Notes: a model not told the origin generated them from the sequence alone. Positions 4,937 to 63,351 are shown, numbered from the stretch's first letter. The stretch is DNA of 64,000 bases from Candidatus Woesearchaeota archaeon (GCA_018303325.1 JAGVYH010000001.1:24849-88848); one strand, 5' to 3'. Translations and numbers: made by a program.

Positions 4937-5039
4937 CTAAACTGCGAATAGTTATGGATATAAAAACATTTCCATTGTTTTTTGCTCTTGTTTTTTCCAA
5001 AAAATAATTTTATAATAAATAGTTATATAGTAAGTAACT

Positions 5040-6707: not shown

Positions 6708-6997
6708 TTTAGATTACATTTAATTAATGACCAGCGAATACTCAGAAACAAGCGGATACTCAGAGAAAAATAGATAATGTGACCGAGCAACGAAGTTGCG
6801 TAGGTCGCATGATTTTTTCCGAGGTTTTGATAAAAAGCTCGTGGGAATCTCGCCGGGCCCATTTAGATTACAGTTAATTAATGGCTAGCGAATACCCAGA
6901 AAAAATAGATTATGTGACCGAGCAACGAAGTTGCGTAGGTCGCATGATTCTTTTCCGAGGTTTTGATAAAAAGCTCGTGGGAATCTCGCCGGGCCCA
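6708..6997 (+). repeat. Two tandem units of about 140 bp. Each ends by recreating the tRNA 3' terminus (gaatctcgccgggccca) with a degenerate T-loop, and each contains a GCAAC-GAA-GTTGC hairpin.
   Basis: Direct comparison of 6719-6861 with 6862-6997. The 17-nt tRNA 3' end occurs three times (6691-6707, 6845-6861, 6981-6997). Confidence 0.7.
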
Positions 6998-7183
6998 TTT
7001 TTAGCTCATTTAGCTTTAAATAGTTAGGTTATAATTAGTTTATACACAATTATATAGTAAGTGACGTAAATTTTTATACAAATCGTGTCACTTACTCTAT
7101 TTGTCGGACATAACAAATGTATAACTATTTATGTCCGACATTATAATAAATTTATATATTACTAATAAAATCATGTTCATATT

Positions 7184-8114: not shown

Positions 8115-8188
8115 TTTGTTTATTTTCTATATTTGTTTTTTAGTTCCTATTTCTTAATATTCTTTTTTTTATTTATAATCCGATTTCC

Positions 8189-8372
8189 CGCTCTCAACTA
8201 GTTTGTGGGACGCAGTCCCCCGTCCCATGAAAAGTTTTTTACGTTTTTTAATCGTTATATAATTCGTTTAAGTTTAAAATAATAAATCCTTAATTAAATC
8301 ATCATGAACGTGTCCAATCAGGTAGGAAATAAAAAAAGAATTATGGAAAGGGTGGCTTCGCCCATGAACTAA
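8189..8372 (+). repeat. GC-hairpin-terminated intergenic element (family E), copy 1
   Basis: Left end cgctctcaac…GGGACgcaGTCCCccgtcccatga. Right end …gtgtccaatcaggtaggaaataaa…ggtggcttcgccc. These match the copies at 41237, 43928(-), 50085, 53537, 55226 and 58781. Confidence 0.75.
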
Positions 8373-8385
8373 TAAAACAGTTTAT

Positions 8386-21385: not shown

Positions 21386-21943
21386 TTATTTTGCATCATT
21401 AATGTTTCCATTACCACTTCCAGAGCCAGTTCCACTTCCAGTAAATTGTGACAAAAGAGGATTCATACAATCTACACATACTTCTAAACTAACTGATAAT
21501 TGTTGTGTAGTAGTGTCATAAGATCCAACTATTAGTTTATACCATACACCATTATATAAAAATGTGTTTTCACTATTTGGTTCAACATTTGTAAGCATAT
21601 TATTTTGGTCTAATGTTATTTGTGTCGCCTTCCCCACCACCACATCACCATACTTCACCAACATCAATACACCTAATAGTATTATCAGTATCAGCGCAGC
21701 ATACAGGAATATTCCCCAGTAATGTATCTGGGTTTGCGGATTGGTAACGCTTACTGGTGTTTTGGGCGCTTTTGATTTGGTTTGCGCTCTTGTAAAGCTT
21801 ACTGAGGTTTTGGGCGCTTTTATTCGAGTTTGTTGATTAACGCTTAATGGAGTTTGTGGCGCTGTTATCTTGGTTTGTTTAGAAAGATTTAATTTCTTTA
21901 CTTGTGTTTGTTTTATTTTAGCCTTTTTTAGTATAATATTCAT
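21386..21943 (-). CDS. Small N-terminally anchored secreted protein ending in a Gly/Ser tract and NDAK; paralogue of 16585..17046
   Basis: C-terminus TGSGTGSGSGNGNINDAK. TM YWGIFLYAALILIILLGVLML. The N-terminus is Lys/Thr/Pro-repeat rich. Confidence 0.55.
   Translation of the reverse strand: MNIILKKAKIKQTQVKKLNLSKQTKITAPQTPLSVNQQTRIKAPKTSVSFTRAQTKSKAPKTPVSVTNPQTQIHYWGIFLYAALILIILLGVLMLVKYGDVVVGKATQITLDQNNMLTNVEPNSENTFLYNGVWYKLIVGSYDTTTQQLSVSLEVCVDCMNPLLSQFTGSGTGSGSGNGNINDAK
21629..21922. repeat. Direct repeat, copy 1 (294 bp), covering the 5' half of gene 21386..21943. Copy 2 lies at 23717..23962.
   Basis: Near-identical sequence. Copy 2 lacks one 48-bp internal unit. Confidence 0.85.
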
Positions 21944-22121
21944 TTATTTTATTTATTCATTTATATATCTTTTTATTATTTTTTTTAATTTTTATATTAC
22001 TTCATTGTATTTCTGGCATTAAAAGAGGGTATCAATAAAAATTTACGTCACTTACTATACATACAAAAACAACCGAAAGATTTATATATTATATGTAATA
22101 AACATTACCTATTAAGTATTA

Positions 22122-22922
22122 ATGATGACAAAAAAAACAAGAAAAGGATTAGGAGAGAAATCTGCGATAGTATTATCTACACTCTCTGAAAAAAACAAGA
22201 ATATCTTTAATGTAGATGATGTTGCAGCGATTCTTCATGAGAAAAGATCGTCAATAATTAAACTTCTTCATGATTTAACTAAGAAAAGATGGCTTTTTCG
22301 CATAAGTAAAGGAATATATCTTATTCTCCCATTAGAAGCTGGGGCAATGCCAAAGTTTACTGAACATGAATTTATACTTGCATCCAGACTAATTTCACCA
22401 TATTACATCTCTTATTGGTCAGCTCTGAATTATTATGGCTTAACTGAACAGGTCTCCAAAACTATTTTCATCGCTACACTTAAAAGAAAATTAGAAAAGG
22501 AAATAATGGGATTAAAATTCAGGTTTATCACCCTCAACAAAAATAAATTTTTTGGATTCAAAGCGATGCAGTTAAACAATCATATTATCAAAATCGCAGA
22601 AGTAGAAAAAGCTATTATTGATTGTTTGGATTTGCCTCGAAATTGCGGGGGGATAGTTGAAGTAATTAAAGCTATTGATGAAGCTAAAAAAGAAATAGAT
22701 TTTAATAAATTAATAGCTTACGCAAAAAAAATGCAGAATGCAGCAATTCTTAATCGTTTGGGATATATATTAGAATTATTAGGGATTAAAGCTAATATAA
22801 AGCCAAGCAAACATTATGTTATGCTTGATACTATCAGTAAAAAGAAAGGAATATATAACAAAAAATGGAAAATTGTTGAGAATGTTTCAAGGGAAGAACT
22901 ATTATCTTGGAGGGAGCATTAA
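22122..22922 (+). CDS. abiEi: AbiEi-family antitoxin/transcriptional regulator (type IV TA)
   Basis: The architecture and size fit, it overlaps the downstream AbiEii gene, and it is similar to the other two AbiEi-like ORFs at 32838 and 61752. Confidence 0.6.
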   Translation: MMTKKTRKGLGEKSAIVLSTLSEKNKNIFNVDDVAAILHEKRSSIIKLLHDLTKKRWLFRISKGIYLILPLEAGAMPKFTEHEFILASRLISPYYISYWSALNYYGLTEQVSKTIFIATLKRKLEKEIMGLKFRFITLNKNKFFGFKAMQLNNHIIKIAEVEKAIIDCLDLPRNCGGIVEVIKAIDEAKKEIDFNKLIAYAKKMQNAAILNRLGYILELLGIKANIKPSKHYVMLDTISKKKGIYNKKWKIVENVSREELLSWREH

Positions 22923-23713
22923 TGATACCTCTTGCTGAACTAAAACGGATTGCTGCTAAGAATAGTGTAGCTTTAAGTGTAGTTGAGAAAGATTATGCGA
23001 TTACATGGATATTATATGCTTTGGCAGAAACAATGTTCAAAGAGTGTTTTATTTTTAAAGGGGGTACTGCATTAAGAAAAGTATATTTCCCTGCATGGCG
23101 CTACTCTGAAGATTTAGATTTTACAGCAACTAAACTTTTGAATGAAATAGAAGTTAAAGAATTAATTAGCTCAGTTAATTACTATCTTTATGAAAAAATT
23201 AAGATGAGTATAACATATAAATCTTTGTATCTTAATCCAGAATATGCTCAGCTTAAAATTCAGTTTTTGGGACCATTAAATCGCGAAAATACTATAAAGC
23301 TAGATATCAGCTTTAGTGAATTCCTAGTTTTGCCACCAGAAAATAAGCTTATCCACTCAGAATATTCAGATAAAGAAAAACACTTCTTGTATGTTTATTC
23401 ATTGGAAGAAAGCTTAGCAGAAAAAATTAGAAGTATTTTACAGCGAGGAAAAACAAGAGATTATTATGATGTATGGAGAATATTAAAGTGGCATTATAAG
23501 TTGATAAATAAAACAAAAACCAAAGAAATTTTAAATCAAAAGTGCAAATTCAAAAATATTATATGTAATGAAAAACTTCTTTTTGGCCAAGAAAAAGTGG
23601 ATAATGCAAAAAAACATTGGGAAAAAGGATTAGGATACCAAATTAATGATTTACCAGATTTTGATATTGTTATAACTGAATGTAAATACTTACTAATGCA
23701 ATTTTTGAAGTGA
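22907..23713 (+). CDS. abiEii: AbiEii/AbiGii-family nucleotidyltransferase toxin
   Basis: Motif FKGGTALRKVYFPAWRYSEDLDF. Confidence 0.75.
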   Translation: MEGALMIPLAELKRIAAKNSVALSVVEKDYAITWILYALAETMFKECFIFKGGTALRKVYFPAWRYSEDLDFTATKLLNEIEVKELISSVNYYLYEKIKMSITYKSLYLNPEYAQLKIQFLGPLNRENTIKLDISFSEFLVLPPENKLIHSEYSDKEKHFLYVYSLEESLAEKIRSILQRGKTRDYYDVWRILKWHYKLINKTKTKEILNQKCKFKNIICNEKLLFGQEKVDNAKKHWEKGLGYQINDLPDFDIVITECKYLLMQFLK

Positions 23714-23716
23714 CCT

Positions 23717-23962
23717 CTTCCCCACCACCACATCACCATACTTCACCAACATCAATACACCTAATAGTATTATCAGTATCAACGCAGCATACAGGAATAT
23801 TCCCCAGTAATGTATCTGGGTTTGCGGATTGGTAACGCTTACTGGTGTTTTTGGCGCTTTTGTTCGAGTTTGTTGATTAACGCTTAATGGAGTTTGTGGC
23901 GCTGTTATCTTGGTTTGTTTAGAAAGATTTAATTTCTTTACTTGTGTTTGTTTTATTTTAGC
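23717..23962 (-). pseudogene. Duplicated 5' fragment (promoter-proximal region and N-terminal codons, but no start codon) of the 185-aa NDAK-protein gene; copy 2 of the direct repeat
   Basis: About 95% identical to 21629-21922. It diverges just before the ATG. Confidence 0.7.
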
Positions 23963-24118
23963 ATTTTATTTATTTATTTATATATTTTTATGTTATTTTT
24001 CATTCTTCATAGTTTTGGCATTAAAAAATGATACTAAATAGAAATATTTAAATAATAGTATGCATTCATACTGCATAATTTACATAAAAAGTATGCAGTG
24101 GTGATTTTGGGGATTATA

Positions 24119-32837: not shown

Positions 32838-33443
32838 GTGATAGTAATGGGCAAGATAATTAAGATTTATGAGGCATTACTTAATAGAAAAGAAAAGGTG
32901 TGCCACAGAACAGAAGTAGTTGAAATAATAAAGGAATATAATAAAAACCTAGGCCATATTGACTGTGAAAATACTTTAAAATATCTTTCAAGGCATAATT
33001 ATATAAAAAGAATTTTTCTAAATTTTTATTATGTAAATTCTTTGGATGAAAGAGAAAGGAAGTTTTGCAGCTATGAAGATAAAGAACTTCTGTTTACAGT
33101 ACTTAACGGGCTTGGCATAAAATGGTATGTTGGCCTAAATTCATCTTTATATCTTCTTGGGAAAATATGGCAGACACCAAGTGTTTTATCAATAATTAAT
33201 GATAAAATAAGTGGAAGGAAAAAAATATTAGGTTCGAATGTAAGATTTATGAAAATCAAAAGCAGCCTTATTTTTGGGCTTAAAAAAAATAAAACGAAAC
33301 ATAATATAATTTACTGCTATTCAGATTTAACAAAAACTTATCTTGATTTTGTTTATTTTAAAATATCAAAAAAACAGATAAATACAAAGGAAATAGGAAA
33401 ATATCTTAAGAGGTATCCTACTTGGTTCAAAAAATTAATATAA
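32838..33443 (+). CDS. abiEi: AbiEi-like antitoxin (short form)
   Basis: It sits upstream of an AbiEii gene and overlaps it. Its size and HTH-like N-terminus fit. Confidence 0.5.
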   Translation: MIVMGKIIKIYEALLNRKEKVCHRTEVVEIIKEYNKNLGHIDCENTLKYLSRHNYIKRIFLNFYYVNSLDERERKFCSYEDKELLFTVLNGLGIKWYVGLNSSLYLLGKIWQTPSVLSIINDKISGRKKILGSNVRFMKIKSSLIFGLKKNKTKHNIIYCYSDLTKTYLDFVYFKISKKQINTKEIGKYLKRYPTWFKKLI

Positions 33444-34342
33444 ATAAATATGTTGCAGATGTCAAAAAAAATCTTTGTATAGAAGCCCCGGATGAAATAG
33501 TTGAAAAAGATCTGTTGTTGACTCTGATTCTTGCTGAGTTTGAAAAAAGAAAGTTGGAAAAAGAACTGATATTTAAAGGAGGCACTCTTTTGTCAAGAAA
33601 CTATCTGAACTATCATAGATTTTCAGAAGACTTGGATTTTGTTCATAAGGACTCTAATAAATTGCGTGAATTAAAAAGAAATACGCGTGAAAAAAGAATC
33701 AAACAGTTTATAGATTATTTCGTTCCTGAATTAAAAGAAGTTGCAAATATATTAAATTTAGAATTTAGTACAGACAGAAGCAACACAAGATTTTGCACCA
33801 TTCTGCATGGAAGGGTTATTTATATTTTTAGGATTTATTATTCTGAAAATAATTTTATAAAAATTGAAATAAATTTTGTTGAAAAAATAATACACCCCCC
33901 TAAAAGAGTTTCAATAAAAGCGATAACGGACTTTTTTGATTCAAGAGAACTTTTATTTACTCTTGGCCTGAAAATTGAAAATTTTGTTGTTATGAGTTAT
34001 ACTTTAGAAGAAATAGTTCTCGAAAAATATCGTGCAATACTCACAAGAAGCGAGCTTAAGGAACGCGACCTTTTCGATCTTTTTTTAATAAAAAACATAT
34101 TTAATCCTAATATAAACCAGATAGTAGAAAAGATTAAGTGTTCCTCTTTGATAAGGAGAAATCTTAATATTATGATTAAGGAGAAACTCTTACTTCTTGA
34201 AAAAAATGAATTTTTCAGGAGTGATGAGAAAATAGAATATTTGACTATTATTCAGTATAATAAAATAGATTTTGAAAACTTAAAAGAAAAGATTAAACCA
34301 ATATTAATAGAAATTTGCAAGAAATTCTTGGAAATGTATTAA
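33422..34342 (+). CDS. abiEii: AbiEii-family nucleotidyltransferase toxin
   Basis: Motif IFKGGTLLSRNYLNYHRFSEDLDFV. Confidence 0.75.
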   Translation: MVQKININKYVADVKKNLCIEAPDEIVEKDLLLTLILAEFEKRKLEKELIFKGGTLLSRNYLNYHRFSEDLDFVHKDSNKLRELKRNTREKRIKQFIDYFVPELKEVANILNLEFSTDRSNTRFCTILHGRVIYIFRIYYSENNFIKIEINFVEKIIHPPKRVSIKAITDFFDSRELLFTLGLKIENFVVMSYTLEEIVLEKYRAILTRSELKERDLFDLFLIKNIFNPNINQIVEKIKCSSLIRRNLNIMIKEKLLLLEKNEFFRSDEKIEYLTIIQYNKIDFENLKEKIKPILIEICKKFLEMY

Positions 34343-38681: not shown

Positions 38682-38933
38682 AGATATATACAGGAGATTT
38701 ATACAAAAGCAACTAATTTATCAGAAAAGTAGTTGCTGTGTGTATATGTTTAAGTTCATACATTTATATTTTTTATATGTTTATATTTAAATGTCATCGC
38801 AAATAATTTGAATATTTTCTAGAGCTATTTAAACTGTTTCGGTCTCAGTTGAAAACTTTTCGGTTCTCGTCGGAAAACATGCGGAAAATCTGGCGATGGG
38901 TTTATTAAGGAGTTATGTCTTATATATTAGTCT

Positions 38934-39257
38934 ATGTTACCATCAAGAATAAAATATGCTGATGAAAAAGTACAAAAAGAGTTTGAAAGACTAAAAGAAA
39001 AGAATCCCGAATTATATAAATGGATTAACAATGCAATGGATATATTAGAAGAAGATGCACATTCAGGAATACAGATACAAAAAAGATTAATCCCTTATGA
39101 ATATATTAAAAAATATTCAGTTGATAATCTATGGAAATACAACTTACCAAAAGGGTGGAGATTAATATATTTTATAGGACATGAAGAGATTGTTGTCATT
39201 TGTATTATACTAGAATGGTTTGATCATAAAAGATATGAAAGAAGATTCAGATATTAA
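38934..39257 (+). CDS. RelE/ParE-like toxin-fold protein (putative)
   Basis: C-terminus WRLIYFIGHEEIVVICIILEWFDHKRY resembles the core strand of RelE/ParE. Confidence 0.35.
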   Translation: MLPSRIKYADEKVQKEFERLKEKNPELYKWINNAMDILEEDAHSGIQIQKRLIPYEYIKKYSVDNLWKYNLPKGWRLIYFIGHEEIVVICIILEWFDHKRYERRFRY

Positions 39258-39577
39258 TCATAATTTCTTCTAAATAAATGTTTGTCCTTAAGCCACTCTT
39301 TTACTTTCTCAGGATAATAAGCCCAACCAATCTTTCCCACTGCATCAATAGATATTCTTCTGTTTTCATAAAGATAATCAATTATCACACAAAAGGTTTG
39401 ATACATCATCTTTTTCGGAAGATGCTCCCACAATGCTCTCTTTTTAAATTCACCGTCATACTTTTTTATAAATTTCTCTACCATCAGCACAGTATCTAAT
39501 CTGGGATATCTTAAAACCTGCCTCGTGCAAAGCGCTGTTTCTTTCTTTTTGCTTTTAATAGGTTTAATATTCTTCAT
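39254..39577 (-). CDS. hypothetical protein
   Basis: ORF only. It is convergent with 38934..39257 and overlaps it by 4 nt. Confidence 0.35.
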   Translation of the reverse strand: MKNIKPIKSKKKETALCTRQVLRYPRLDTVLMVEKFIKKYDGEFKKRALWEHLPKKMMYQTFCVIIDYLYENRRISIDAVGKIGWAYYPEKVKEWLKDKHLFRRNYD

Positions 39578-39682
39578 GTTATATCAACTGATATAACAAG
39601 TAATATATATATTTTTCTGAAAAGAGTGGTTTTTTACCCTCAAACAAAAAGATTTATAACCCTTTTTCAATTACCTCAATAG

Positions 39683-41200
39683 ATGAATGAACAAAATCTT
39701 AAAAAAGAAGACATAAAAGAATTAGTGAAAAACAGCAAAATTAAACTTTACGAGTTAGAGGAATATCTCTTTCAGAATATTTTTAATTCTGACAGCGAAT
39801 ATTTTCAGCAGGCTGTTGAAATTAGCGAAAGGCTTCGCGCAGAAATTTTCGAAGAAACATTAGGAATTACATTAGACACAATAAAAGATGCTAATTATGG
39901 TTTATTAGTCAATAATTCGCGGTTAAAAGACGGCAACATCCTTAAAGGCACAGAATTAAAAATTGGCACTGCAAAGATACCATTAAGCATAGCGGGTCCT
40001 GTTAAAATTAACAGCCAGCAAAATAATGATAATAATAAGAATAGTAATAATTATAACAATGTAAACAATGAATTTTATATTCCAATCGCAACAAATGAAG
40101 CTGCTTTAGTCGCTGGTCTTAATAGGGGAATAAAAGCAATAAATTTAGCTGGAGGTGCAGCTGCTTCTGTTGTATACAATGGAATGACAAGAGCGCCATT
40201 ATTGGAAGCGCCTGATATTTTTTCTGCGCAAAAGTTTTCTGAAAATATTAATACTGGAAAATACAACGAGCTTTTCGCTAAAATCGTCGAGGAAAACGCA
40301 GAATACTCCAGATTTATGGACGTGAAAGCATTTCAGATTCAAAATAAGGTTTGGTTGCGGTTTAGATATAACACTGGCGAGGCAATGGGCATGAACTCTG
40401 CTGTAAAATACACAACATTAATCATGCAGGAATTATTAAATTCAGAGAAACATCCAGAAACAAAAGGTTTCAAACTTTTGGCATTGAGCGGCAATTTATG
40501 CTCTGACAAAAAAGCAGCAATGATAAATATTCTTGAAGGCAGAGGCTACAAAGCAGAAGCTTCAGTTATTATTTCTAATGAAATCCTTGAAAAAGTTTTC
40601 AATGTAAACGCTGAGAGAATAATCAAATTAAATTTTTGGAAAAATCATGTCGGCTCAAGCCTTGCGGGCTCATTAACAGGATGCAATGCAAACGCCGCAA
40701 ATACCATCGCAGGAATTTTCGCAGCAACCGGACAGGATCTTGCGCAGATTGTTGAAAGCTCTACTTGCTACACTTTTGCAGCGCCTGCATCTGCTTCATT
40801 CAATAATACACTTGGAGTTAATAATGCACTTAAATTTAGTATTACTTTACCATGTCTTGAAATCGGAACAATTGGCGGAGGCACTCAATTTGGAACTGCA
40901 AAAGAAGCGTTTGATATTATGTTCACAAACAACAGAAACAACAGCGTGAAAAACAGCGAAAACAACTGCACAAACTTAGAAGAAATAGAAATAAAAGAAA
41001 ATAGAAAAAATAATATAAATCATGAAATAGAAGAAAAGAGCGGAAATAATATAAATAATACCTGTACCAACCCACTCACAAGAACATTTGCAGAAGTTAT
41101 AGCTGCAGCAGTATTAGCACAGGAGCTTAATCTGCTTGCAGTATTGGCAAATGAGTACGCATTATGTAATTGTCATATGAAATTAGCGAGAGGAGAGTAA
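39683..41200 (+). CDS. hmgA: HMG-CoA reductase with Asn-rich low-complexity insertions
   Basis: Motifs IPLSIAGPVKIN, ATNEAALVAGLNRG, and GYKAEASVIISNE through to CNANAANTIAGIFAATGQD. Confidence 0.8.
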   Translation: MNEQNLKKEDIKELVKNSKIKLYELEEYLFQNIFNSDSEYFQQAVEISERLRAEIFEETLGITLDTIKDANYGLLVNNSRLKDGNILKGTELKIGTAKIPLSIAGPVKINSQQNNDNNKNSNNYNNVNNEFYIPIATNEAALVAGLNRGIKAINLAGGAAASVVYNGMTRAPLLEAPDIFSAQKFSENINTGKYNELFAKIVEENAEYSRFMDVKAFQIQNKVWLRFRYNTGEAMGMNSAVKYTTLIMQELLNSEKHPETKGFKLLALSGNLCSDKKAAMINILEGRGYKAEASVIISNEILEKVFNVNAERIIKLNFWKNHVGSSLAGSLTGCNANAANTIAGIFAATGQDLAQIVESSTCYTFAAPASASFNNTLGVNNALKFSITLPCLEIGTIGGGTQFGTAKEAFDIMFTNNRNNSVKNSENNCTNLEEIEIKENRKNNINHEIEEKSGNNINNTCTNPLTRTFAEVIAAAVLAQELNLLAVLANEYALCNCHMKLARGE

Positions 41201-41236
41201 AAAGTGTATTTGTTTAGTTGGTTAATGTTTTTTGAC

Positions 41237-41470
41237 CGCTCACAACCCGTAACTAGGGACGCAGTCCCCCGTCCTATGAAAAGTTTAAGTTTTTTCGAAG
41301 AGTTTATTAAAAAATTAAATTTCGAAAAACAAACTAAATTAAATCATGAGACGTGTGGCTTCGCCCAGGAACTATAGCAAAGGCACCAAATTTCCGTAAT
41401 TAATAATGCCTTTGCTATATACGTGGACTTTAACAAAAAAGATACGAATATTAAAGTCCACCATTATAAA
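41237..41470 (+). repeat. Family-E element (short form, 41237-41371) followed by a gcaaaggca hairpin and a 'ggactttaa' hairpin (41422-41470)
   Basis: Conserved termini. The 'ggactttaa' hairpin matches those at 5353-5398 and 44045-44092. Confidence 0.75.
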
Positions 41471-41524
41471 CAAAGACTAAATGTTTAAATAGATTAAATG
41501 TTGGTTGAATGACTTAGTATATTT

Positions 41525-42697
41525 ATGGTGTTAAGAATGCTTCAAAAACTAAACATTGGTATTGTCGGATTTGGATGCTATATTCCTAAATTCAGAATAA
41601 AAATAGAAGATATTGCTGCTGCCAATAATCAGAATGTTGAATTGTTAAAATCAGCTTTGCTTATTTCTGAAAAATCAGTTCCTAATAAAGATGAAGACGC
41701 AGTTACAATCGCTGTGGAAGCTGCAAAGACTGCAATTGCCAGAGCAGAGCAAGTATCAAAATTATTAAAAAATAATTCAAAAACAGAGAATAATATTTCT
41801 AGTGAATCAAATACTTCCAATGACGCTGTTAATAATTTTAACAAAACAAAAATCGGCGCAATTTACATGGGGAGTGAATCACATCCTTACGCAGTTAAAT
41901 CAAGCGCATCAATTCTTGGAGAAGCATTAGGTATAGGAAATAATTTTACTGCTGCTGATTTAGAATTTGCATGCAAGGCAGGAACAGCTGCACTGCAGAT
42001 GATATCAGGAATGGTCATGTCTGGAATTGTAGAATATGGCCTTGCAATCGGCGCAGACACTTCTCAGGGCGCGCCAGGAGATGCGTTAGAATATAGTGCG
42101 TCAGCAGGAGGCGCTGCATTTATCGTAGGAACCTCAGGCAAAGACAACGCAGGAAATGAAAAAACCGCAGCAAACATTCTCTACACATTATCAAAAACAA
42201 CAGACACACCTGATTTCTGGAGAAGGAACGCACAGAAATATCCAACACATATGGGTAGATTTACAGGCGAGGAAGCTTATTTCAAGCATGTAATCGAGAC
42301 GACACAGGCAATGCTTCAAGAAACAGGGTTTAAGATTAATGATTTTGATCATATTGTATTTCATCAGCCAAACGGAAAATTCCCGCTCACAGCAGCAAAA
42401 ACATTATGTGCAACAAAAGAACAATTAAAATTTGGAATTGTCGTGCATGAAATAGGAAATACTTATTCAGGCAGCTGCCTGTTAGGATTGACGAATGTGT
42501 TAGAAAATGCTCTTCCTAATCAAAGAATATTGCTTACATCATATGGTTCTGGCAGTGGCTCAGACTGTTTTGTTATTGAAACAACAGACCTTTTGCCTGA
42601 AACCCAGAAAATAGGCAAAAAGTTATTAAACCACCTAAGCAATAAGGTGTATGTCAATTATACTCAATACAGACAAATGGTTGAGATGATACATTAG
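41525..42697 (+). CDS. Hydroxymethylglutaryl-CoA synthase (archaeal type)
   Basis: Thiolase-fold condensing enzyme (…GSESHPYAVKSSA…, CKAGTAALQ) that sits next to the thiolase and DUF35 genes. Confidence 0.75.
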   Translation: MVLRMLQKLNIGIVGFGCYIPKFRIKIEDIAAANNQNVELLKSALLISEKSVPNKDEDAVTIAVEAAKTAIARAEQVSKLLKNNSKTENNISSESNTSNDAVNNFNKTKIGAIYMGSESHPYAVKSSASILGEALGIGNNFTAADLEFACKAGTAALQMISGMVMSGIVEYGLAIGADTSQGAPGDALEYSASAGGAAFIVGTSGKDNAGNEKTAANILYTLSKTTDTPDFWRRNAQKYPTHMGRFTGEEAYFKHVIETTQAMLQETGFKINDFDHIVFHQPNGKFPLTAAKTLCATKEQLKFGIVVHEIGNTYSGSCLLGLTNVLENALPNQRILLTSYGSGSGSDCFVIETTDLLPETQKIGKKLLNHLSNKVYVNYTQYRQMVEMIH

Positions 42698-42748
42698 AAA
42701 TTAGTAGAATAAATGTTATATAGAACACATTAAAAAAGGTAAAATAAT

Positions 42749-43897
42749 ATGAAAGTAGGTATAATCGGCGTCGGAGCAACAAAGTTTGGAGAGTTATGGA
42801 GATATGGGATTAAAGATTTATTAGCTGAATCACAACTGCTTGCATTAGAAGACGCTGGTTTAAGCGAGAGAGATATAGATATGATAGTCACAGGCAATAT
42901 GTGCTCAAGCACTTTTTCCGGACAAAGCCATCTTGGCAGCATGGCAAGCGAAATTTTAAATATCAATGTTCCTTCTATCCGCGTCGAGGCTGCCTGCGCT
43001 TCTGGCAGCGTTGCAATAAGACAAGGCATTCACGCAATAAATTCAGGAGAAGCTGATATTGTTATGGTTAACGGCGTGGAAAAAATGACAGATGTGCAGA
43101 CAAGACAGGCAACAACAGGATTAATGGGTGCAGGAGACGAGGAATGGGAAGGCACACAAGGATTAACATTTTGCGGATTGTATGCAATGATGGCAAGAGC
43201 TTATATGCACAAATATAGCTTAACCAGAGAACAGCTTGCTTTAGTGAGCGTAAAAAATCATAAGCATGCAACACTTAACCCCATTGCTCATTTTCATAAT
43301 GAAATCACAGTTGATCAGGTAATCAACAGCTCAATCATTGCAGATCCTTTAACATTATTAGACTGTTCGCCAATTACAGACGGAAGTGCTTCAATAATCT
43401 TAGCCAGCGAAGAGGTTGCTAAAAAATTTGAGAAACCAGTATGGATAATTGGAAGCGGACAGGCAAATGATACATTAAGCCTGCATGCCCGTAAATCATT
43501 GACAGAAATCACAGCAACAACACAGGCAGTGCAAAGAGCATTATTACAGGCAAAGATGGGTATTGACAAAGTGGATGTTACAGAGGTTCATGATTGCTTT
43601 TCAATTGCAGAAGTTATGGCTATTGAAGATTTAGGGCTTATTCCTAGAGGAGAAGCAGGAAAAATAATGGAAGAAGGACAAACTTATTTCGACGGAAAAA
43701 TTCCAATCAATAGCTGCGGCGGATTAAAAGCCTGCGGCCATCCAATCGGCGCAACTGGAATAAAACAGGCATGGGAAATTGTCAAACAATTAAGGGGAGA
43801 AGCAGGAAAACGGCAGGTAAAAGGAGCGCAGATAGGATTAACGCACAATGTCGGCGGAACCGGAAGCACTGTTGTTGTTCATGTGTTTTCGAAATGA
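42749..43897 (+). CDS. Acetyl-CoA C-acetyltransferase (thiolase)
   Basis: MKVGIIGVGATKFGE…, active-site Cys region VEAACASGSVAI, and C-terminus NSCGGLKACGHPIGATG. Confidence 0.85.
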   Translation: MKVGIIGVGATKFGELWRYGIKDLLAESQLLALEDAGLSERDIDMIVTGNMCSSTFSGQSHLGSMASEILNINVPSIRVEAACASGSVAIRQGIHAINSGEADIVMVNGVEKMTDVQTRQATTGLMGAGDEEWEGTQGLTFCGLYAMMARAYMHKYSLTREQLALVSVKNHKHATLNPIAHFHNEITVDQVINSSIIADPLTLLDCSPITDGSASIILASEEVAKKFEKPVWIIGSGQANDTLSLHARKSLTEITATTQAVQRALLQAKMGIDKVDVTEVHDCFSIAEVMAIEDLGLIPRGEAGKIMEEGQTYFDGKIPINSCGGLKACGHPIGATGIKQAWEIVKQLRGEAGKRQVKGAQIGLTHNVGGTGSTVVVHVFSK

Positions 43898-43927
43898 AAT
43901 ACAAATAATAGTATTCGTTTTTGTTTA

Positions 43928-44157
43928 GTTCCTGGGCGAAGCCACCCGTCTCATGATGAAGTTTAGGTTTTTTTATTTTAAACTTGAACAGTTTATGTAT
44001 AGGCACGGACATTAATTTTTATATATCCTATCCGTGACTATATTCGCGGACTTTAACAAAATTAATACGAATATTAAAGTCCGCCACTATAACGATTAAA
44101 AAAACGTAAAAAACTTTTCATGAGACGGTGGACTGCGTCCCACAAACGTGTTGGGAG
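43928..44157 (-). repeat. Family-E element in inverted orientation, carrying an internal 'ggactttaa' hairpin (44045-44092) and a cacggataggata…gtccgtgcc hairpin
   Basis: The reverse complement gives a left end gtttgtgggacgcagtccaccgtctcatgaaaag and a right end catcatgagacgggtggcttcgcccaggaac. Confidence 0.75.
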
Positions 44158-44249
44158 TAAATAATATGTTACAAAAGCACATAAATTGAAATAATCTATT
44201 GCAAATAGTGATAAGGAAAAGTGGCATCTAAGCACAACAAGGTGAAATA

Positions 44250-44663
44250 ATGTACAGAGAAAGCCCAATAATCAGATGGAGAAGATATCCTGAAAGGTAC
44301 AGATTAGAAGGAAACAAGTGCGCACAATGCAGCAAGATTTATTTTCCTAAGACATACTTGTGCGAATGCGGTTCAAAGAAGTTTTTACCTCATCAATTAA
44401 AACCAAGAGGAAAGATATTAACTTACACAGAAATAAAATCTTCTCCAGAAGAATTCTCAGAAATGACTCCTTATTGTGTCGCCATAATTGAACTGAATGA
44501 AGGGCCGAAAATAACAACACAGATAGCAGATTGTGATGTTTCTGAAATAAAAATTGGTGATGAAGTGGAAATGGTGTTTAGAAAATTTCTCGCGTCAGGA
44601 GAAGAAGGAATTATACATTATGGGTTTAAGTTTAAGAAGGTTGAAGAGAATATAGTAAATTAA
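44250..44663 (+). CDS. DUF35 Zn-ribbon/OB-fold scaffold protein of the thiolase/HMGCS complex
   Basis: CxxC…CxC zinc ribbon (CAQCSKIYFPKTYLCECGS) plus an OB-fold. It is in the canonical position. Confidence 0.75.
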   Translation: MYRESPIIRWRRYPERYRLEGNKCAQCSKIYFPKTYLCECGSKKFLPHQLKPRGKILTYTEIKSSPEEFSEMTPYCVAIIELNEGPKITTQIADCDVSEIKIGDEVEMVFRKFLASGEEGIIHYGFKFKKVEENIVN

Positions 44664-44674
44664 AGTGTTATACT

Positions 44675-46114
44675 TTATAAAAATTCAACTGCTTTTCCTG
44701 TTCTGAAATCTTGTAACTTTGAATCTTTTCCTGGTTTTTGTATATATTGGATGTTTGAAGAGCTAAGATCTATATTTTTAACCCTGCTGCCACCTATTAT
44801 AAACCCGGTTTCAGAAGTAGTTTCAGCAATAGAAAATAATTTATTGTCTATTATTAATCCTAATCCATTAGGTGAACTATATTTCCATTCTACTGCAACA
44901 GATATATGATGATCATAATAAACCAACCTATAATCAACTCCTGCTTGTTCCAATAAAGAAGCATAAAGAATGACTTTTCCACTGCAATCAGAACCTCTTG
45001 ACATCAGCACTTCGTTAGGTCTTTTTAAAACTTCAGTACCGCCTGTTACTTCTGATTGATCATATTTTACTTCACGTGTTACAAAATCCAAAAGCCGCTG
45101 AGCAGTATGCTCGTTAGATATTGGAGAAGGAACTAATGAAGTTACTAATCTTTCCAATGATGGCTCGCCTTTTTTTGCAACAAAAGCACCATGATTATGT
45201 ACAATCTCGATGGCACCATTACCATTTTTTCCTAAATTAATCCTGAGAGAACCACCATGAATACTTCTGTTTTCAGCAAAATCTTCTAATTCTTTTAAAG
45301 AAAAGGTGTATGTTGCACTTTTATAAGGAACACTGATCTGTGCTGACGGATTAACCCTAAAATCAACTGAAGGAAATCTGAAAATATAATGCCCTGGTTT
45401 TCTAAATCCATATTTTTCAAGTAATAGAACACTACCATCATATTTTCCATCCTGTGTTTGACCCCATCTAATTGCACTTGGATTTTTTGACAATCTTTGT
45501 AAATCCTGTTTATTATATTTGTTAACGGGTATTGAAAAATAGACCATTCCTTCGGTTAAGTCATACATCATTAATTCTGCGCTTGTTCCAGTTATCTGTC
45601 CTGTAAAGTTAGAGCTTGTAAATCTTGGTTGTGCCATATAACTTAAGACAATAGAAGTGATATCATCCATTTCTGCAGTTCTTGGCTCTGATTTTGGAGC
45701 TGGTTTTTGTGTGGTTGTATGATTTGTAGAAGGGGAAGGGGCGGTGGTAGGATGATTAGTTGTAGGATGAGATGTTGTAGATGAAATAGGTGCTTGTGCT
45801 TTTTTACTTCCTTTACTTCCTTTTTTTTGTGGTGATTGTTTTCCTTTTTGAGTTCCTGAGTTTTGAGTTCCTGAATCTTCAAATAAAGGATTTTTTGGTG
45901 GCTCTGGATTTGCAACTGATTGTTCTATTGCCTTTGTTGGTTTTTGCCATTCTCTATATGCATCTTTATAAAAATCAACTGCGTTTTCACCTAACAATAC
46001 AGTAGAAAATATAGATAAAAATCCACCAGAAGCTAACCAAATCAATTTTACAAGTCTTGATTCTTTCGCCTTTCTTATTCTTTCATTATCTTCTTCAGCA
46101 TTATATTGTACCAT
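44675..46114 (-). CDS. Membrane-anchored protein with a Thr/Pro-rich linker and a transglutaminase-like Cys-protease core
   Basis: N-terminal TM. Core motifs GSDCSGKVILYASLLEQAGVDYRLVYY and HHISVAVEW. Confidence 0.45.
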   Translation of the reverse strand: MVQYNAEEDNERIRKAKESRLVKLIWLASGGFLSIFSTVLLGENAVDFYKDAYREWQKPTKAIEQSVANPEPPKNPLFEDSGTQNSGTQKGKQSPQKKGSKGSKKAQAPISSTTSHPTTNHPTTAPSPSTNHTTTQKPAPKSEPRTAEMDDITSIVLSYMAQPRFTSSNFTGQITGTSAELMMYDLTEGMVYFSIPVNKYNKQDLQRLSKNPSAIRWGQTQDGKYDGSVLLLEKYGFRKPGHYIFRFPSVDFRVNPSAQISVPYKSATYTFSLKELEDFAENRSIHGGSLRINLGKNGNGAIEIVHNHGAFVAKKGEPSLERLVTSLVPSPISNEHTAQRLLDFVTREVKYDQSEVTGGTEVLKRPNEVLMSRGSDCSGKVILYASLLEQAGVDYRLVYYDHHISVAVEWKYSSPNGLGLIIDNKLFSIAETTSETGFIIGGSRVKNIDLSSSNIQYIQKPGKDSKLQDFRTGKAVEFL

Positions 46115-46282
46115 AACACATTATATGGAGGAACTAGTATATAAATCTTTTGTTTTTGTAACCCCTTATTAGTAGTTAAAATATAAACGAAATATACTTT
46201 TATCAGTTAATGTCAAAACTATATTCTAAAACTTTTCAATTTTCAGAAATCTTATCACTAAATATGAATTTTACTGAAAACA

Positions 46283-47344
46283 CTACCTGCAATAAGTCCT
46301 AACCAACTCTTTAGCAATTTTACGCAGATGTGGATTTTGTATTAAACCCAAATTACAAGGAATTAACCCACCGTTTAATTGATCAATAGATTTTATTCCT
46401 TGTGTATACCACTCTGCAACGTAATCTTTTGTTCTTTGAATTACGTTTGAAAGATATGCAGGAACTCTATGTGGTTCAGACAACAGTCTCATTATTTCTA
46501 AAGTACCATGCTCATGGTTTGCATCAGTATCATAATCAACAGGAAATGCTGCAACTGCATACTCCATTCCTAACTGCATTGCAAACTGCGCTTCAGGGTT
46601 AGCTGTCATGCCAATAATATCTGCATAAGTTGATCTTTTCATCCCCTCTGCTGATGAGCTAAATCTATCGCCAGGGATTGTTACATAAATACCATGCTCA
46701 TGAACATTATTAAAATAATTTCCCTCTTTTGCGCAGTCAATTAAGATTTTTCTTAATCCTTCAGAAAATGCAGGTCTTGGATTAAAATGTATTACTAACC
46801 CAACACCCCAAATATTATCATTTCTTCCTGTTTCATCAATATAATCATGGGGAACAACCAGCTCTTCCAATTTTATTGTATTTTGTCTGAGGCTTCCAAC
46901 TGCGCTGGTTGCAATAACCACATTTGCGCCGAGACTTTTCGCTGCGATTAAATTAGCTGCATATTGTGAGCATGAAGGCCCATATCTTACACTATGACCA
47001 TGTCTTGGAATGAATATAACACCATCTCTTTCTTTGTATTCAATTACACCAGGCAGAAGGAAATCATCTTCTGATTGAAACTTAACCACCCCGGATGCTT
47101 GTTTATCTTCTGTAAAAATAGTTATAGGAACTATGGAATTATGAATGTTACCTTTACGGCAGCAGCCATTTAATTCAACACCCATTCGTTTCCACACCTC
47201 TTCAACTCTCGGCTCAACATATTGCGTGTCAAATCTCTTAAATTCACCTAAACCTTCGAGGCTGTCACCTATGCCAGAACCGCCAATAATTGCGATCTTG
47301 ACATCATGTGTATTTACATCATTTGTTTTTCTTACAGTTACCAT
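46283..47344 (-). CDS. Purine nucleoside / 5'-methylthioadenosine phosphorylase (PNP family 2) with insertions
   Basis: IAIIGGSGIGD and FIPRHGHSVRYGPSCSQYAANLIAAKSLGANVVIATSAVGSL. Confidence 0.7.
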   Translation of the reverse strand: MVTVRKTNDVNTHDVKIAIIGGSGIGDSLEGLGEFKRFDTQYVEPRVEEVWKRMGVELNGCCRKGNIHNSIVPITIFTEDKQASGVVKFQSEDDFLLPGVIEYKERDGVIFIPRHGHSVRYGPSCSQYAANLIAAKSLGANVVIATSAVGSLRQNTIKLEELVVPHDYIDETGRNDNIWGVGLVIHFNPRPAFSEGLRKILIDCAKEGNYFNNVHEHGIYVTIPGDRFSSSAEGMKRSTYADIIGMTANPEAQFAMQLGMEYAVAAFPVDYDTDANHEHGTLEIMRLLSEPHRVPAYLSNVIQRTKDYVAEWYTQGIKSIDQLNGGLIPCNLGLIQNPHLRKIAKELVRTYCR

Positions 47345-49306: not shown

Positions 49307-49460
49307 ATAAGTAAATGTAAAGTAAATAAATATACTAAAAGCACAAAATAATCGAACATTATTTTGTGCTTTTGTATATCTAGGGAATCAGAGATTCCTG
49401 AGAAGTTAGAAAGCTTTGCTTTCCAACTTACAAATTAATAATAATTTATAATAAAAAAAC

Positions 49461-50009: not shown

Positions 50010-50084
50010 ATAATGTTGAGAATAATCATTTTTGTGTTTGTTTAACTGAGTTTGCAGATTTCCTGTTTCTTAATATTTTTATTC

Positions 50085-50256
50085 CGCTCTCAACTCGTAA
50101 CTAAGGGCGAAGTCCACCGTCCTATGATTTTAGTTTAGAGTTTTTTAAGAAAGGTGTAATTAAATTAACAGAAAAAACTAAATCATCATATACGTGTCCA
50201 ATCAGGTAGGAAATAAACTAATTAAAATAGTGAGACTGGTGGCTTCGCCCAGGAAC
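50085..50256 (+). repeat. Family-E element
   Basis: ccgctctcaac…gggcgaagtccaccgtcctatga … gtgtccaatcaggtaggaaataaa … ggtggcttcgcccaggaac. Confidence 0.75.
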
Positions 50257-50322
50257 GAAACAAAAAAAAGTTTAAAATTAGTACAATAAAAAATATCAAA
50301 ACTACACAAAACAACAATTCAT

Positions 50323-53492: not shown

Positions 53493-53536
53493 TATAATGT
53501 TGTTTGTATTTGTTTAGCTGATTAATGTTTTTTGAC

Positions 53537-53975
53537 CGCTCTCAACCCGTAACTAGGGACGCAGTCCCCCGTCCTATGATTATTTTTTAAGTTTTTTAAG
53601 AAATGTGTATTATTGCAGATTAAATGAAAAATTTCTTATTAAGTCGTATTTAATCTGCAAGATTATATACTAAAAGTGATTAATTTTCGTACAAATTAAT
53701 CACTTTTGTATATACAAAAGTGTAAAATAATGTTCGATTATTTTACACTTTTAGTATATTTCAGATTAAATGTAATTTAAGTTTGTTAAATAGTATTTAA
53801 TATGAAAAATTGAAAATTTAATCAATTTATTTTAATTTTCAATAAATTTAAATGAGACTATTTTAATTAAATTTACAATAAACTAACAGAAAAAAATAAA
53901 TCATCATATACGTGTCCAATCAGGTAAGAAATAAATAAATTAATAATAGTAAGACATGTGGCTTCGCCCAAGAAC
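53537..53975 (+). repeat. Family-E element, long form (about 440 bp). It carries a 'cagattaaatg…atttaatctg' hairpin and a complete 'tatactaaaagt' double-hairpin module (53674-53759).
   Basis: The termini are conserved with the other copies. The internal modules match 3700-3750 and 62466-62560. Confidence 0.75.
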
Positions 53976-54037
53976 TGAATAAATCTATTTTTTCTGCAAA
54001 ACAATCTATAATATTTATAAATCAACGTCAATTTTCC

Positions 54038-61751: not shown

Positions 61752-62465
61752 ATGCAAGCCATCACGTTTCTAAAAGAAATAGAACAGTTTCAGTCTCCTG
61801 TTTTATCATTCAATGATGTAATTAGAATTATAGGAAAAAGCAAAGAATATTCAAGAGTGTATATTCATCGCCTTAAACAAAAGAATATTATAACTGAAAT
61901 AGAAAAAGGGAAATATGCGCTATCTGAAGAGCCCTTTGAGATTGCCTCGAACCTTGTCTTTCCTTCATATATCTCATTCATGGGTGCATATTATATTTAT
62001 GGGTTCACTACACAAATCCCCATAATTGCTCAAATAGTTTGCCAAAACCCTAAAAAAGAAATGAACATAGGGAATATTAAGGTAAACTTTATTTCTTTTA
62101 AGAATAAAAGAATATTTGGTTATAAAAGAGAACGATTTAGAGATAAATATATCTTCATTGCTGAACCAGAAAAGGCCATAATAGATTCTTTATACCTTCC
62201 AAAATACTGCCCAATAAGTGAAAGTTATGAAGCACTTGAAAATAAAGAGTTAGACATAAATAAACTTTTAGAATACGGATTAAGGATGAATTCAATTATA
62301 ACTCTAAAAAGGTTAGGTTATCTTTTGGAACTACATGGTATAGATATTTATGAAAAAGTAAAGCACAAATTAAACAAAAGATATGACTTATTAAATCCAT
62401 TTATGAAAACCTCTAAAAAGAATTCATCAAAGTGGAAACTCAACATAAATGATGTGTTTGAATGA
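61752..62465 (+). CDS. abiEi: AbiEi-like antitoxin
   Basis: It sits upstream of an AbiEii gene. The fold resembles the other AbiEi ORFs (…KAIIDSLYLPKYC…, RLGYLLEL). Confidence 0.55.
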   Translation: MQAITFLKEIEQFQSPVLSFNDVIRIIGKSKEYSRVYIHRLKQKNIITEIEKGKYALSEEPFEIASNLVFPSYISFMGAYYIYGFTTQIPIIAQIVCQNPKKEMNIGNIKVNFISFKNKRIFGYKRERFRDKYIFIAEPEKAIIDSLYLPKYCPISESYEALENKELDINKLLEYGLRMNSIITLKRLGYLLELHGIDIYEKVKHKLNKRYDLLNPFMKTSKKNSSKWKLNINDVFE

Positions 62466-62560
62466 TATATACTAAAAGTCATTAATTTTCGAACAAATTA
62501 ATGACTTTTGTATATACAAAAGACCAAAATAAAGTACGATTATTTTGGTCTTTTAGTATA
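62466..62560. repeat. 'tatactaaaagt' double-hairpin module inserted between abiEi and abiEii
   Basis: tatatactaaaagtcattaattttcgaacaaattaatgacttttgtatatacaaaagaccaaaataaagtacgattattttggtcttttagtata. The stems covary with the copies at 53674 and 5071. Confidence 0.8.
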
Positions 62561-62580
62561 ATCAAAAATGAGGTGTTTGT

Positions 62581-63351
62581 GTGATAATCAAAACTGAACT
62601 TGTAAAATATTGCAATGTATTGGGGTTAAACCTTGGACAAGCAGAGATAGATTATATTCAGCATTTATTCCTTATCTTTTTTTCAAAGCATTCTGGAAAC
62701 AGTTATATATTTAAGGGAGGAACAGCACTACAAAAAGGTTATGGGTTGAACAGATTTAGTATTGACCTTGATTTTACACAAGTCCATGAAAATAATATAA
62801 ATGAGATTATTAATAAAATCAGCAGTGATATAAGTGATTTTGGCTATAAAACAGAAGTAGAGGAAAAGAAAACAATAGGTAAAACATTTATTCTCAAGAT
62901 AAATGGACCATTATACATTGGCACCAAAATGAGTATTTGTAATCTAAAAATTGAGATTAGCCAGCGGGAAAGCATTTTGCTTAAGCCACAATTTAAGGAG
63001 ATTATGCCTAGATACAATGATCTACAACCTTACACCATAATGATCATGGATGAGGAAGAAATACTTGCGGAGAAAGTAAGAGCAATTATGACAAGGAATA
63101 AACCGAGAGATGTGTTTGACTTAGGATTTATTTTAAAAAGAGGGGCTAAATTTCAGTTGGAGTTCATAAATAAAAAATTAGAGTATTATAAAGAGCAATT
63201 TGAGATGAAGAGATTTATTGATAAATTAAAGGAAAAAGAAAATATATGGGAAAAAGAAATGAGAAATTATGTTAAGGACGTTCCAGAGTTCAAAACAATT
63301 TTAAAAGAGATAACGAACGCAATAAATAATAATAAGGATAAATATAAATGA
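62581..63351 (+). CDS. abiEii: AbiEii-family nucleotidyltransferase toxin
   Basis: Motif IFKGGTALQKGYGLNRFSIDLDFT. Confidence 0.75.
   Translation: MIIKTELVKYCNVLGLNLGQAEIDYIQHLFLIFFSKHSGNSYIFKGGTALQKGYGLNRFSIDLDFTQVHENNINEIINKISSDISDFGYKTEVEEKKTIGKTFILKINGPLYIGTKMSICNLKIEISQRESILLKPQFKEIMPRYNDLQPYTIMIMDEEEILAEKVRAIMTRNKPRDVFDLGFILKRGAKFQLEFINKKLEYYKEQFEMKRFIDKLKEKENIWEKEMRNYVKDVPEFKTILKEITNAINNNKDKYK

Follow-up and report, generated by a model that had tools for sequence, protein, structure and literature searches.

A hairpin-forming repeat of about 47 nt, largely arranged in inverted pairs, is scattered through a 64,000-nt stretch of DNA from Candidatus Woesearchaeota archaeon (GCA_018303325.1 JAGVYH010000001.1:24849-88848; hereafter the window), where one such pair separates the genes abiEi and abiEii. 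We consider it probable that this repeat is a non-autonomous, multi-copy palindromic mobile DNA element, resembling the repetitive extragenic palindromes (REPs), the bacterial interspersed mosaic elements (BIMEs) and the REP doublets forming hairpins (REPINs), and that its fold has been kept since the folded strand is recognised by a trans-acting enzyme, whose existence we infer. An earlier note on this DNA had described a double-hairpin module, in three full copies and one partial copy, whose compensatory stem substitutions were taken to argue for a selected RNA or DNA structure. All of these copies are present, and the quoted hairpin arms are correct and complementary inside each copy. The structural argument is likewise supported, now by 70 distinct units.

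The repeating entity is a single hairpin unit, and all units can be written in one orientation. From 5' to 3', a unit reads TATAC-T-AAAAG, an arm of about 10 nt, a TCGWAC loop, the complementary arm and CTTTT-GTATA. Its foot (TATAC/GTATA) is fixed and is followed, on the 5' side, by a single extrahelical T; next come a clamp of 5 bp (AAAAG/CTTTT), a variable stem some 10 bp long and a polar loop. The module of the earlier note is two such units, inverted and tail-to-tail, which share a central GTATATAC; the double hairpin is present, but what evolves is the single hairpin. The 5' T bulge is near-invariant among 70 distinct aligned units, and the loop motif TCGWAC occurs 34 times in the forward and four times in the reverse sense among 82 distinct units. 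This polarity fits recognition of the folded strand by a protein. Four stem flavours recur, here called alpha (TTAATTT), beta (AAAATAA), gamma (TCCTTGA...) and delta (GGAATTAG...).

Further copies were collected by an exact-pattern scan of one genome per species, which returned at least 65 loci (L-numbers refer to these). At least 48 of them lie in about ten metagenome-assembled genomes (MAGs) of DPANN archaea, labelled Woesearchaeota, Nanoarchaeia or Nanoarchaeota, and at least 17 are bacterial. Covariation was tested on the 17-bp outer structure, using a MAFFT alignment, not fitted to the structure, of 70 distinct units from about ten genomes. Paired cells make up 93.6% of this alignment and 78.7 ± 0.7% after shuffling (0 of 500 shuffles reach the observed score), and they fall to 33-56% when the partners are slid by 1-3 columns. 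Two-sided changes occur in 12 of the 17 stem pairs, compensated cells number 170 as against 59 ± 7 in shuffles, and stem positions 12-14 each display three to five standard pair types. Even the supposedly invariant clamp is compensated, as AAACG/CGTTT, CAAAG/CTTTG, AAGAG/CTCTT or AAATG/CATTT, in each case within one unit of a dimer. Covariation thus holds as copies are added, even though some copies within a genome are recent duplicates with identical sequence.

Pairing within units is high (82-95% at positions 7-14), while the alternative pairing between the units of a dimer, 65-97% at positions 7-13, reaches only 13% at position 14; what has been conserved is therefore the fold into two hairpins. 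A cloverleaf or four-way junction, built from an outer stem of the dimer ends and a central stem, was rejected as the main fold on the same position and on the compensation of clamps within units. At the first two variable pairs (stem positions 12-13), one and the same dinucleotide is found in the two partners of 21 among 30 distinct dimers (shuffle 7.0 ± 2.1), in the classes TG, CA, TC and AC. Examples are window 53666-53758, L014 1537-1629 and L020 436-528. Position 14 differs between partners in 26 of the 30, and only five of the 30 have identical clamps. This four-way covariation could come from descent of the dimers from a few ancient lineages, from a specificity code carried on both hairpins, or from partial selection for the alternative junction fold. 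Two other ideas were discarded. Foldback self-priming, which would mirror mutations automatically, is at odds with the retained asymmetric T bulge and polar loop, and the likeness of TTCGAAC to a tRNA T-loop fails because A58 is missing from the common TCGTAC variant and the loop is closed by a T-A pair.

A covariance model, R1, was built from the 70 distinct archaeal units. It finds seven matches in the window, at 58-72 bits (E 1e-11 to 1e-14), and 122 in the window plus the 48 archaeal loci, which reduce to 107 non-overlapping units. These 107 lie in about 370 kb of repeat-centred DNA, compared with seven per 64 kb in the window, and nearly all are intergenic. The gapped clamp pattern TATACTAAAAG-N20-40-CTTTTGTATA has six matches in the window where 0.00 are expected, and the 18-nt central palindrome has three where 0.17 are expected. 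In all, the window holds seven intact units (three dimers and one single), one truncated unit and one decayed unit:

5073-5121, plus strand: gamma unit (TCCTT...AAGGA, enlarged loop), left half of a gamma/delta dimer; R1 58.4 bits
5120-5166, minus strand: delta unit (GGAATTAGTTT...) with the compensated clamp variant AAATG/CATTT; R1 62.6 bits
38700-38746, minus strand: decayed unit (TATACAAAAGCAACTA...TAGTTGCTGTGTGTATA on the plus strand); R1 27.2 bits, E about 8e-4
49331-49378, plus strand: single beta unit (CACAAAATAA...), 24 nt past the aIF5B stop codon; R1 70.7 bits
49379-49434, plus strand: remnant (56 nt) of the four-hairpin variant's spacer (48 nt, two hairpins), right-hand unit missing
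53666-53712, plus strand: alpha unit (TGATTAATTT...), left half of a dimer nested in a family-E repeat; R1 70.2 bits, and an insertion relative to the three other E copies
53711-53758, minus strand: beta unit (TGTAAAATAA...), right half of the dimer nested in family E; R1 70.0 bits
61551-c.61574, plus strand: truncated unit, clamp and left arm of a beta-type stem only; recognised in the sequence by an exact 11-mer match, below R1 detection
62468-62514, plus strand: alpha unit (stem TCATTAATTT / AAATTAATGA, loop TCGAAC), left half of the abiE dimer; R1 71.7 bits, exact clamp pattern
62513-62560, minus strand: beta unit (stem ACCAAAATAA / TTATTTTGGT, own-strand loop TCGTAC), right half of the abiE dimer, sharing GTATATAC; R1 66.1 bits, clamp pattern

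Pattern search and covariance model together place the copies named in the earlier note at 5073-5166, 53666-53758, 62468-62560 and 61551-c.61574. Those copies were rightly named, with one start (53674) about 8 nt too far right; the single unit at 49331-49378 and the decayed unit at 38700-38746 had been overlooked. The gamma/delta copy at 5073 is 97% identical to L015 152-251, in MAG JACQSP01.

The form in which the repeat usually propagates is a heterodimer, alpha/beta or gamma/delta, joined tail-to-tail. Across the window and the 48 archaeal loci we count 36 dimers, all of them tail-to-tail and none head-to-head, together with three trimers; those that can be classified are 23 alpha/beta and three gamma/delta, with one more probably gamma/delta. 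Because only this arrangement occurs, the dimer would seem to be an entity in its own right, not the outcome of random adjacent insertions. Its ends, TATACTAAAAG and CTTTTAGTATA, are perfect 11-bp terminal inverted repeats (TIRs), every unit is bounded by TA, and tail-to-tail partners share exactly GTA-TA-TAC. As DNA, the dimer folds at -27.5 kcal/mol, compared with -5.6 ± 1.9 for shuffles (z -11.8). A longer, four-hairpin variant consists of two units flanking a conserved 48-nt spacer with two GC-richer hairpins (L007 7118-7259, L034, L057 and both ends of contig L026), and its RNA fold reaches -53.8 kcal/mol (z -9.5). L055 and L008 carry a spacer of the same architecture with a different, but again self-complementary, sequence. 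A truncated copy of the four-hairpin variant stands at window 49331-49434; it is 96% identical to L007 7157-7260, where both units are present.

The units behave as dispersed repeats. Identical units stand at four to six unrelated loci within one MAG, contigs break or end at them, and the flanking genes are unrelated housekeeping genes (RNR, ThyA, DHFR, a class I tRNA synthetase, GrpE, Nop5, L44e and aRF1). Between thyA and folA, 2 nt apart in L027, a dimer occupies the 121-nt spacer of L013. Likewise, L058 is syntenic with window 39167-47067 at 87-91% identity and has dimers in two spacers, with none in the window orthologues. These spacers cannot be aligned, so that no junction can be read. 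The 53666 dimer lies inside an insertion of about 255 nt in one of four family-E copies, with junctions compatible with TA duplication; the nesting reported by the earlier note is borne out by an alignment of the four E copies, in which the inserted block also holds two other hairpins. No duplication beyond the element's own TA or TATA is seen at unit borders. Among 48 classifiable sites, 34 lie between co-directional genes, eight between divergent and six between convergent genes.

Several observations on these surroundings deserve record in their own right. Window 39167-47067 and L058 1-8000 share a mevalonate-pathway cluster and its neighbours, and every spacer between them is unalignable and filled by different repeat families; beside genes 87-91% identical, this points to very fast spacer turnover in a small genome. 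In L064 (6216-6292) and L061 (5570-5659) the upstream open reading frame (ORF) runs 8-9 nt into the unit, whose TATAC-TAA supplies the stop codon, and in L064 the next ATG follows 2 nt past the element. In L034 (231-2843) an aRF1 gene, split by an intein with LAGLIDADG and helix-turn-helix domains, is bracketed by hairpin units.

The window itself is archaeal in content, with ELP3, aIF5B, DUF371, L21e, Rpo4 and mevalonate-pathway genes at about 33% GC, and over about 8 kb it is 87-91% identical to Woesearchaeota MAG contig JACQSP010000006.1 (L058). The family occurs in at least ten DPANN MAGs (Woesearchaeota/Nanoarchaeia). Counted as archaeal are also three MAGs that bear the label Methanosarcinales and a contig, L037, that bears the label Parcubacteria. 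L037 and one of the three MAGs, CAZKVI01, encode homologues of proteins of the window or of Woesearchaeota MAGs, and these labels, or the binning, are therefore probably wrong. The oddly labelled loci are L012, L016, L017, L036, L053, L061, L063, L064 and L037, and the GC content of CAZKVI01 and L037 is 30-39%. Among relatives chosen by a protein homologue and not by the repeat, R1 has no match in 220 kb (39 metagenome loci); the query was the protein of 44250-44663, to which 37 of the 39 are 43-73% identical and none is more than 73% identical. Set beside its density in carrier MAGs, this means that the family is dense in some lineages and absent in others. Beyond the Archaea, the clamp is matched exactly at 19 places in bacterial and viral DNA, but the inner sequence there does not fold into a like hairpin: its median minimum free energy (MFE) is -1.2 kcal/mol, as against -5.8 kcal/mol for archaeal matches. 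These matches are chance and provide a natural negative control. Collections of phages, plasmids and viral contigs yielded nothing by BLAST and, for the clamp, only two chance matches that lack a hairpin; they thus lend no support to a virus or plasmid vector.

The abiE site illustrates what an insertion may do to its neighbours. The placement of this copy between the two genes of the third abiE pair, as the earlier note had it, is confirmed by Pfam:

61752-62465, plus strand: abiEi; Pfam AbiEi_4 and AbiEi_1, each slightly below the gathering score, full length against its paralogues
62581-63351, plus strand: abiEii; Pfam AbiEii E 2.7e-32, full length against its paralogues, with which its N-terminus aligns

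The dimer begins 2 nt past the TGA stop of abiEi and ends 20 nt before the GTG start of abiEii, which has its own Shine-Dalgarno sequence (GAGGTG, 62570-62575) 5 nt upstream of the GTG. The genes of this pair are thus 115 nt apart, whereas there is an overlap of 16 nt in pair 1 and of 22 nt in pair 2. To judge from this spacing and the separate Shine-Dalgarno sequence, the insertion probably replaced translational coupling by independent initiation. The 64 kb hold three AbiEi/AbiEii pairs in all (22122-23713, 32838-34342 and 61752-63351), with about 26-35% mutual identity. Direct repeats of about 340 nt (21622-21957 and 23710-23997, 87-94% identical) bracket the first, which may be a cassette lying between duplicated sequence.

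We propose that the putative enzyme would recognise the folded hairpin, most likely in single-stranded DNA, reading its shape together with the foot, bulge and loop, and would copy or move the element into TA-rich intergenic sites. Only copies still able to fold would then propagate, which would account for paired stem substitutions around a fixed foot, bulge and loop. Copies inside operons are predicted to be transcribed too and to fold in mRNA. As a side effect, such RNA hairpins might uncouple adjacent genes in translation or change the stability of the mRNA, with abiE pair 3 as an example.

Several points weigh against this interpretation. No mobilising enzyme was found, and all-vs-all clustering of 397 ORFs revealed no recurrent gene family beside the units. 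Pfam searches detected no transposase, integrase or HUH domain in 106 flanking ORFs, in unit-bracketed ORFs or in 45 of the 51 window ORFs, and tblastn gave no Y1- or RAYT-like match in about 530 kb, a weak test made with approximate consensus queries (RAYTs being REP-associated tyrosine transposases). The GTAG/CGTC tag that is the hallmark of REPs is absent, the invariant end here being TATAC(T), and a survey of complete genomes reported no RAYTs in Archaea, only IS200-type Y1 proteins (PMC6006769). Contigs matching the AbiEi and DUF371 proteins exactly are all 100% identical clones, module included; they provide no clean site lacking the element from which a target duplication could be proved. 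Further, genomes that range from 30 to 43% GC, and whose homologous proteins share 30-48% identity, have units 80-100% identical to one another. Such identity is unusual for vertically inherited selfish repeats and needs either horizontal spread or a conserved partner. Lastly, the wobble test that might separate recognition of single-stranded DNA from that of RNA, described below, is weak.

A more specific form of the proposal is put forward tentatively, as a possibility with the odds against it. The repeat would be an archaeal counterpart of REPINs that does without a RAYT: doublets folded in single-stranded DNA, an enzyme of another kind, a shared 2-bp class code (TG, CA, TC or AC at positions 12-13) and horizontal spread among Woesearchaeales. 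If so, horizontal spread would explain near-identical units in genomes of 30-43% GC, and the code would match the hairpins to each other or to a cognate protein.

The first rival explanation is a cis-acting RNA structure selected by the host at each locus, whether an mRNA stabiliser, a processing or punctuation signal or a translational insulator. The covariation is strong and the folds are very stable. The 34 co-directional sites, moreover, are often filled by the element (which leaves 2 and 20 nt in the abiE spacer, 2 and 3 nt in that of L017, and 17 and 10 nt between thyA and folA), a Shine-Dalgarno sequence often follows directly, and the element is far more conserved than the neighbouring genes. 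Orientation, however, does not follow transcription, both directions being similarly frequent: in co-directional contexts 12 dimers are beta-first and seven alpha-first, and six single units lie with the genes and five against. Nor is G·U favoured over A·C: the 17 stem pairs hold 16 G·T/T·G and 26 A·C/C·A, while a cruder count on MFE structures ran in the opposite direction (26 and 11), and since the counts disagree there is no clear asymmetry. Eight sites lie between divergent genes, sites are not shared between genomes with 87-91% identical genes, the family is absent from the 220 kb of relatives, and identical copies stand at unrelated loci. Rfam gave no relevant match in the whole window at the gathering threshold, and in E-value mode the two module regions returned only far sub-threshold, miRNA-like hairpin matches. 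Thus, none of orientation, wobble, context or Rfam supports a strand-specific RNA gene. We regard selection of the RNA structure at each locus as unlikely; and of the two possibilities that the earlier note left side by side, a structured RNA and a foldback element, orientation, wobble, position, patchy distribution and Rfam favour the DNA element, akin to a miniature transposable element with inverted repeats (MITE), over an RNA gene.

About equally improbable, in our judgement, is a classical MITE of the TIR type, moved by a DDE transposase with TA duplication (IS630/Tc1-like), in which the 11-bp ends TATACTAAAAG and CTTTTAGTATA would serve for binding and the hairpins inside would be incidental. 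The dimer does have perfect inverted ends, TA stands at every unit border, the GTA-TA-TAC junction is as expected for a shared TA, the family-E junctions are compatible with TA duplication, and other hairpin families of about 47 nt in the window also end in TATA. The flanking TA, however, is indistinguishable from the element's own TATAC foot. Double-stranded TIRs do not explain two-sided changes that keep 10-bp stems of free sequence complementary, clamp variants are compensated within a unit and not between the dimer ends, and the conserved bulge and loop are left without explanation. In the sampled loci and scanned ORFs there is no autonomous copy or DDE gene, and the sampled loci contain no outward pair of ends enclosing a transposase.

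We give still less weight to sites that serve the host as DNA, either portable promoter or terminator modules or binding or cruciform sites for a chromosomal protein. Both ends and the centre are TATATA-like, A4/T4 tracts flank each stem, and elements are often near gene ends, at a median of about 24 nt from the upstream stop codon. The distance to the downstream start codon, however, ranges from 2 to 389 nt without preferred geometry, and the A-rich tract is downstream of each TATA, the wrong side for a transcription factor B recognition element. Archaeal termination is not known to need a hairpin. The T tracts are only 4 long and divergent contexts (eight) are as common as convergent ones (six), which is not terminator-like; promoter and terminator modules were rejected on the start-codon distance and on these two counts, and the covarying stems would again lack an explanation. 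Chance inverted repeats or a few recent duplicates, which might be suspected at about 33% GC, where low-complexity AT-rich palindromes are common, and with some copies identical within a MAG, are refuted by the pattern counts (six clamp matches with none expected), by compensated differences across about ten genomes, by the fold (z -11.8) and by the bacterial clamp matches without a hairpin, and have next to no chance of being the explanation.

The mobile palindromic element that we favour is best compared with REPs and BIMEs (PMC3733652, PMC2817692), which are short extragenic imperfect palindromes in many copies, found as singles, inverted dimers and clusters. REP families comprise singles, head-to-head, tail-to-tail and head-to-tail dimers, heterodimers, spacers structured as small stem-loops, and complementary stem changes (PMC3733652). 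Shared features thus extend to heterodimers of different stems, structured spacers, compensated changes between subfamilies and sites in operons and at gene ends. The present family differs in its DPANN host, its AT-rich unit of 47 nt (REPs have 20-40 nt), its TATAC tag with a bulged T in place of GTAG or CGTC, its abutting partners with zero spacer, and the lack of a RAYT in the sampled loci. The REPIN doublet is the replicating unit and is mobilised by a single-copy RAYT (PMC3116915). The present family resembles the Pseudomonas REPIN-RAYT system (PMC3116915, 10.1101/2022.05.22.493013) in that the doublet looks like the replicating form and singles look like remnants (49331), the hairpin seems to be kept for propagation, and the family is long-lived. 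The REPs of a REPIN, however, are near-identical and fold into one long hairpin, whereas alpha and beta partners fold separately; and the unit sequence here is common to a much deeper divergence than REPINs usually span.

Other systems are instructive in part. Archaeal MITEs include the SM-type MITEs of Sulfolobus. In common with prokaryotic MITEs, the present elements are small, non-coding and intergenic, have terminal inverted repeats and can be nested. They also share a high Woesearchaeal density (about seven units per 64 kb here), a Woesearchaeal genome having among the highest archaeal MITE densities, 105 per Mb, in a bulk MITE-Tracker survey (PMC11602168). They differ in that no parent insertion sequence with matching ends was found in the sampled loci, and in that their internal sequence is constrained by pairing. 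Integron attC sites are likewise imperfect palindromes recognised as a folded strand, with polarity conferred by extrahelical bases, variable sequence and conserved structure, and they too lie directly after stop codons between co-directional ORFs. Unlike attC, however, our units lack the R''/R' consensus (RYYYAAC / GTTRRRY), do not form one-per-cassette arrays, and split housekeeping operons and a toxin-antitoxin pair; the scanned ORFs of the window contain no integrase domain. The ends of IS200/IS605 elements and PATE-type derivatives have subterminal hairpins associated with tnpA and/or tnpB. Our hairpins, with their extrahelical T, presumably also resemble TnpA substrates; no tnpA- or tnpB-like gene was seen in the sampled DNA (flanking and bracketed ORFs, and tblastn with approximate queries). 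Small mobile hairpins, often paired, reportedly invade AT-rich spacers in fungal and sponge mitochondria as double-hairpin elements or repetitive hairpin-forming elements. Those are organellar, our family resides in an archaeal chromosome, and there is no sequence relationship, so that the comparison is an analogy only.

The window contains other repeats of related appearance. Family E is a composite repeat of about 220 nt with two GC-rich hairpins (cores GGGACGCAGTCCC and GTGGCTTCGCCCA) in four intergenic copies:

8160-8385: family-E copy
41205-41381: family-E copy
50053-50265: family-E copy
53505-53984: family-E copy, split by the insertion of about 255 nt

L015 3274-3421, from MAG JACQSP01, matches part of family E at 78%, which places this repeat in JACQSP01 as well. 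A second hairpin family (TTTCAGATTAAAT...ATTTAATCTGAAA) is found at 3701-3749, 53613-53661 and 53759-53807, thus on both sides of the 53666 dimer, and shows a compensated change of its own (TTTCAGA/TCTGAAA and TTGCAGA/TCTGCAA). In L037, from another genome, the similarity to this dimer continues into both flanks, which suggests that the same composite of dimer and flanking hairpins may be present there. Further hairpin families of about 47 nt have unrelated stems and TATA(S)...(S)TATA termini, and often abut through a shared TA:

5026-5072: TATA-ended hairpin
5346-5400: TATA-ended hairpin
7053-7094: TATA-ended hairpin
41373-41419: TATA-ended hairpin
41415-41469: TATA-ended hairpin
44038-44092: TATA-ended hairpin

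These may form a superfamily with a common insertion machinery or target. Lastly, 6691-7000 is a tandem duplication of a GC-richer block of about 135-154 nt upstream of the L21e gene, 92-100% identical and containing GACCGAGCAACGAAGTTGCGTAGGTC-type hairpins.

Woesearchaeal repeats of this kind have already been recorded (PMC11602168), and the literature searchable here describes neither this family nor its structure and covariation; no archaeal REP family or RAYT is described in the surveys PMC3733652 and PMC6006769. REPs, BIMEs and REPINs are well studied in Bacteria, and repeat expansion is unexpected in the tiny, compact genomes of DPANN archaea. Here, one hairpin family fills operon spacers, including those of thyA-folA and of a toxin-antitoxin pair, stays near-unchanged across deeply divergent Woesearchaeota and evolves by paired substitutions. 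In practical terms, MAG assemblies are interrupted at such repeats, which the R1 covariance model is able to find. If the mobilising activity were identified, it would represent a new system in Archaea for recognising hairpins in single-stranded DNA (or RNA), and the family would become a marker for horizontal exchange among uncultured DPANN lineages.

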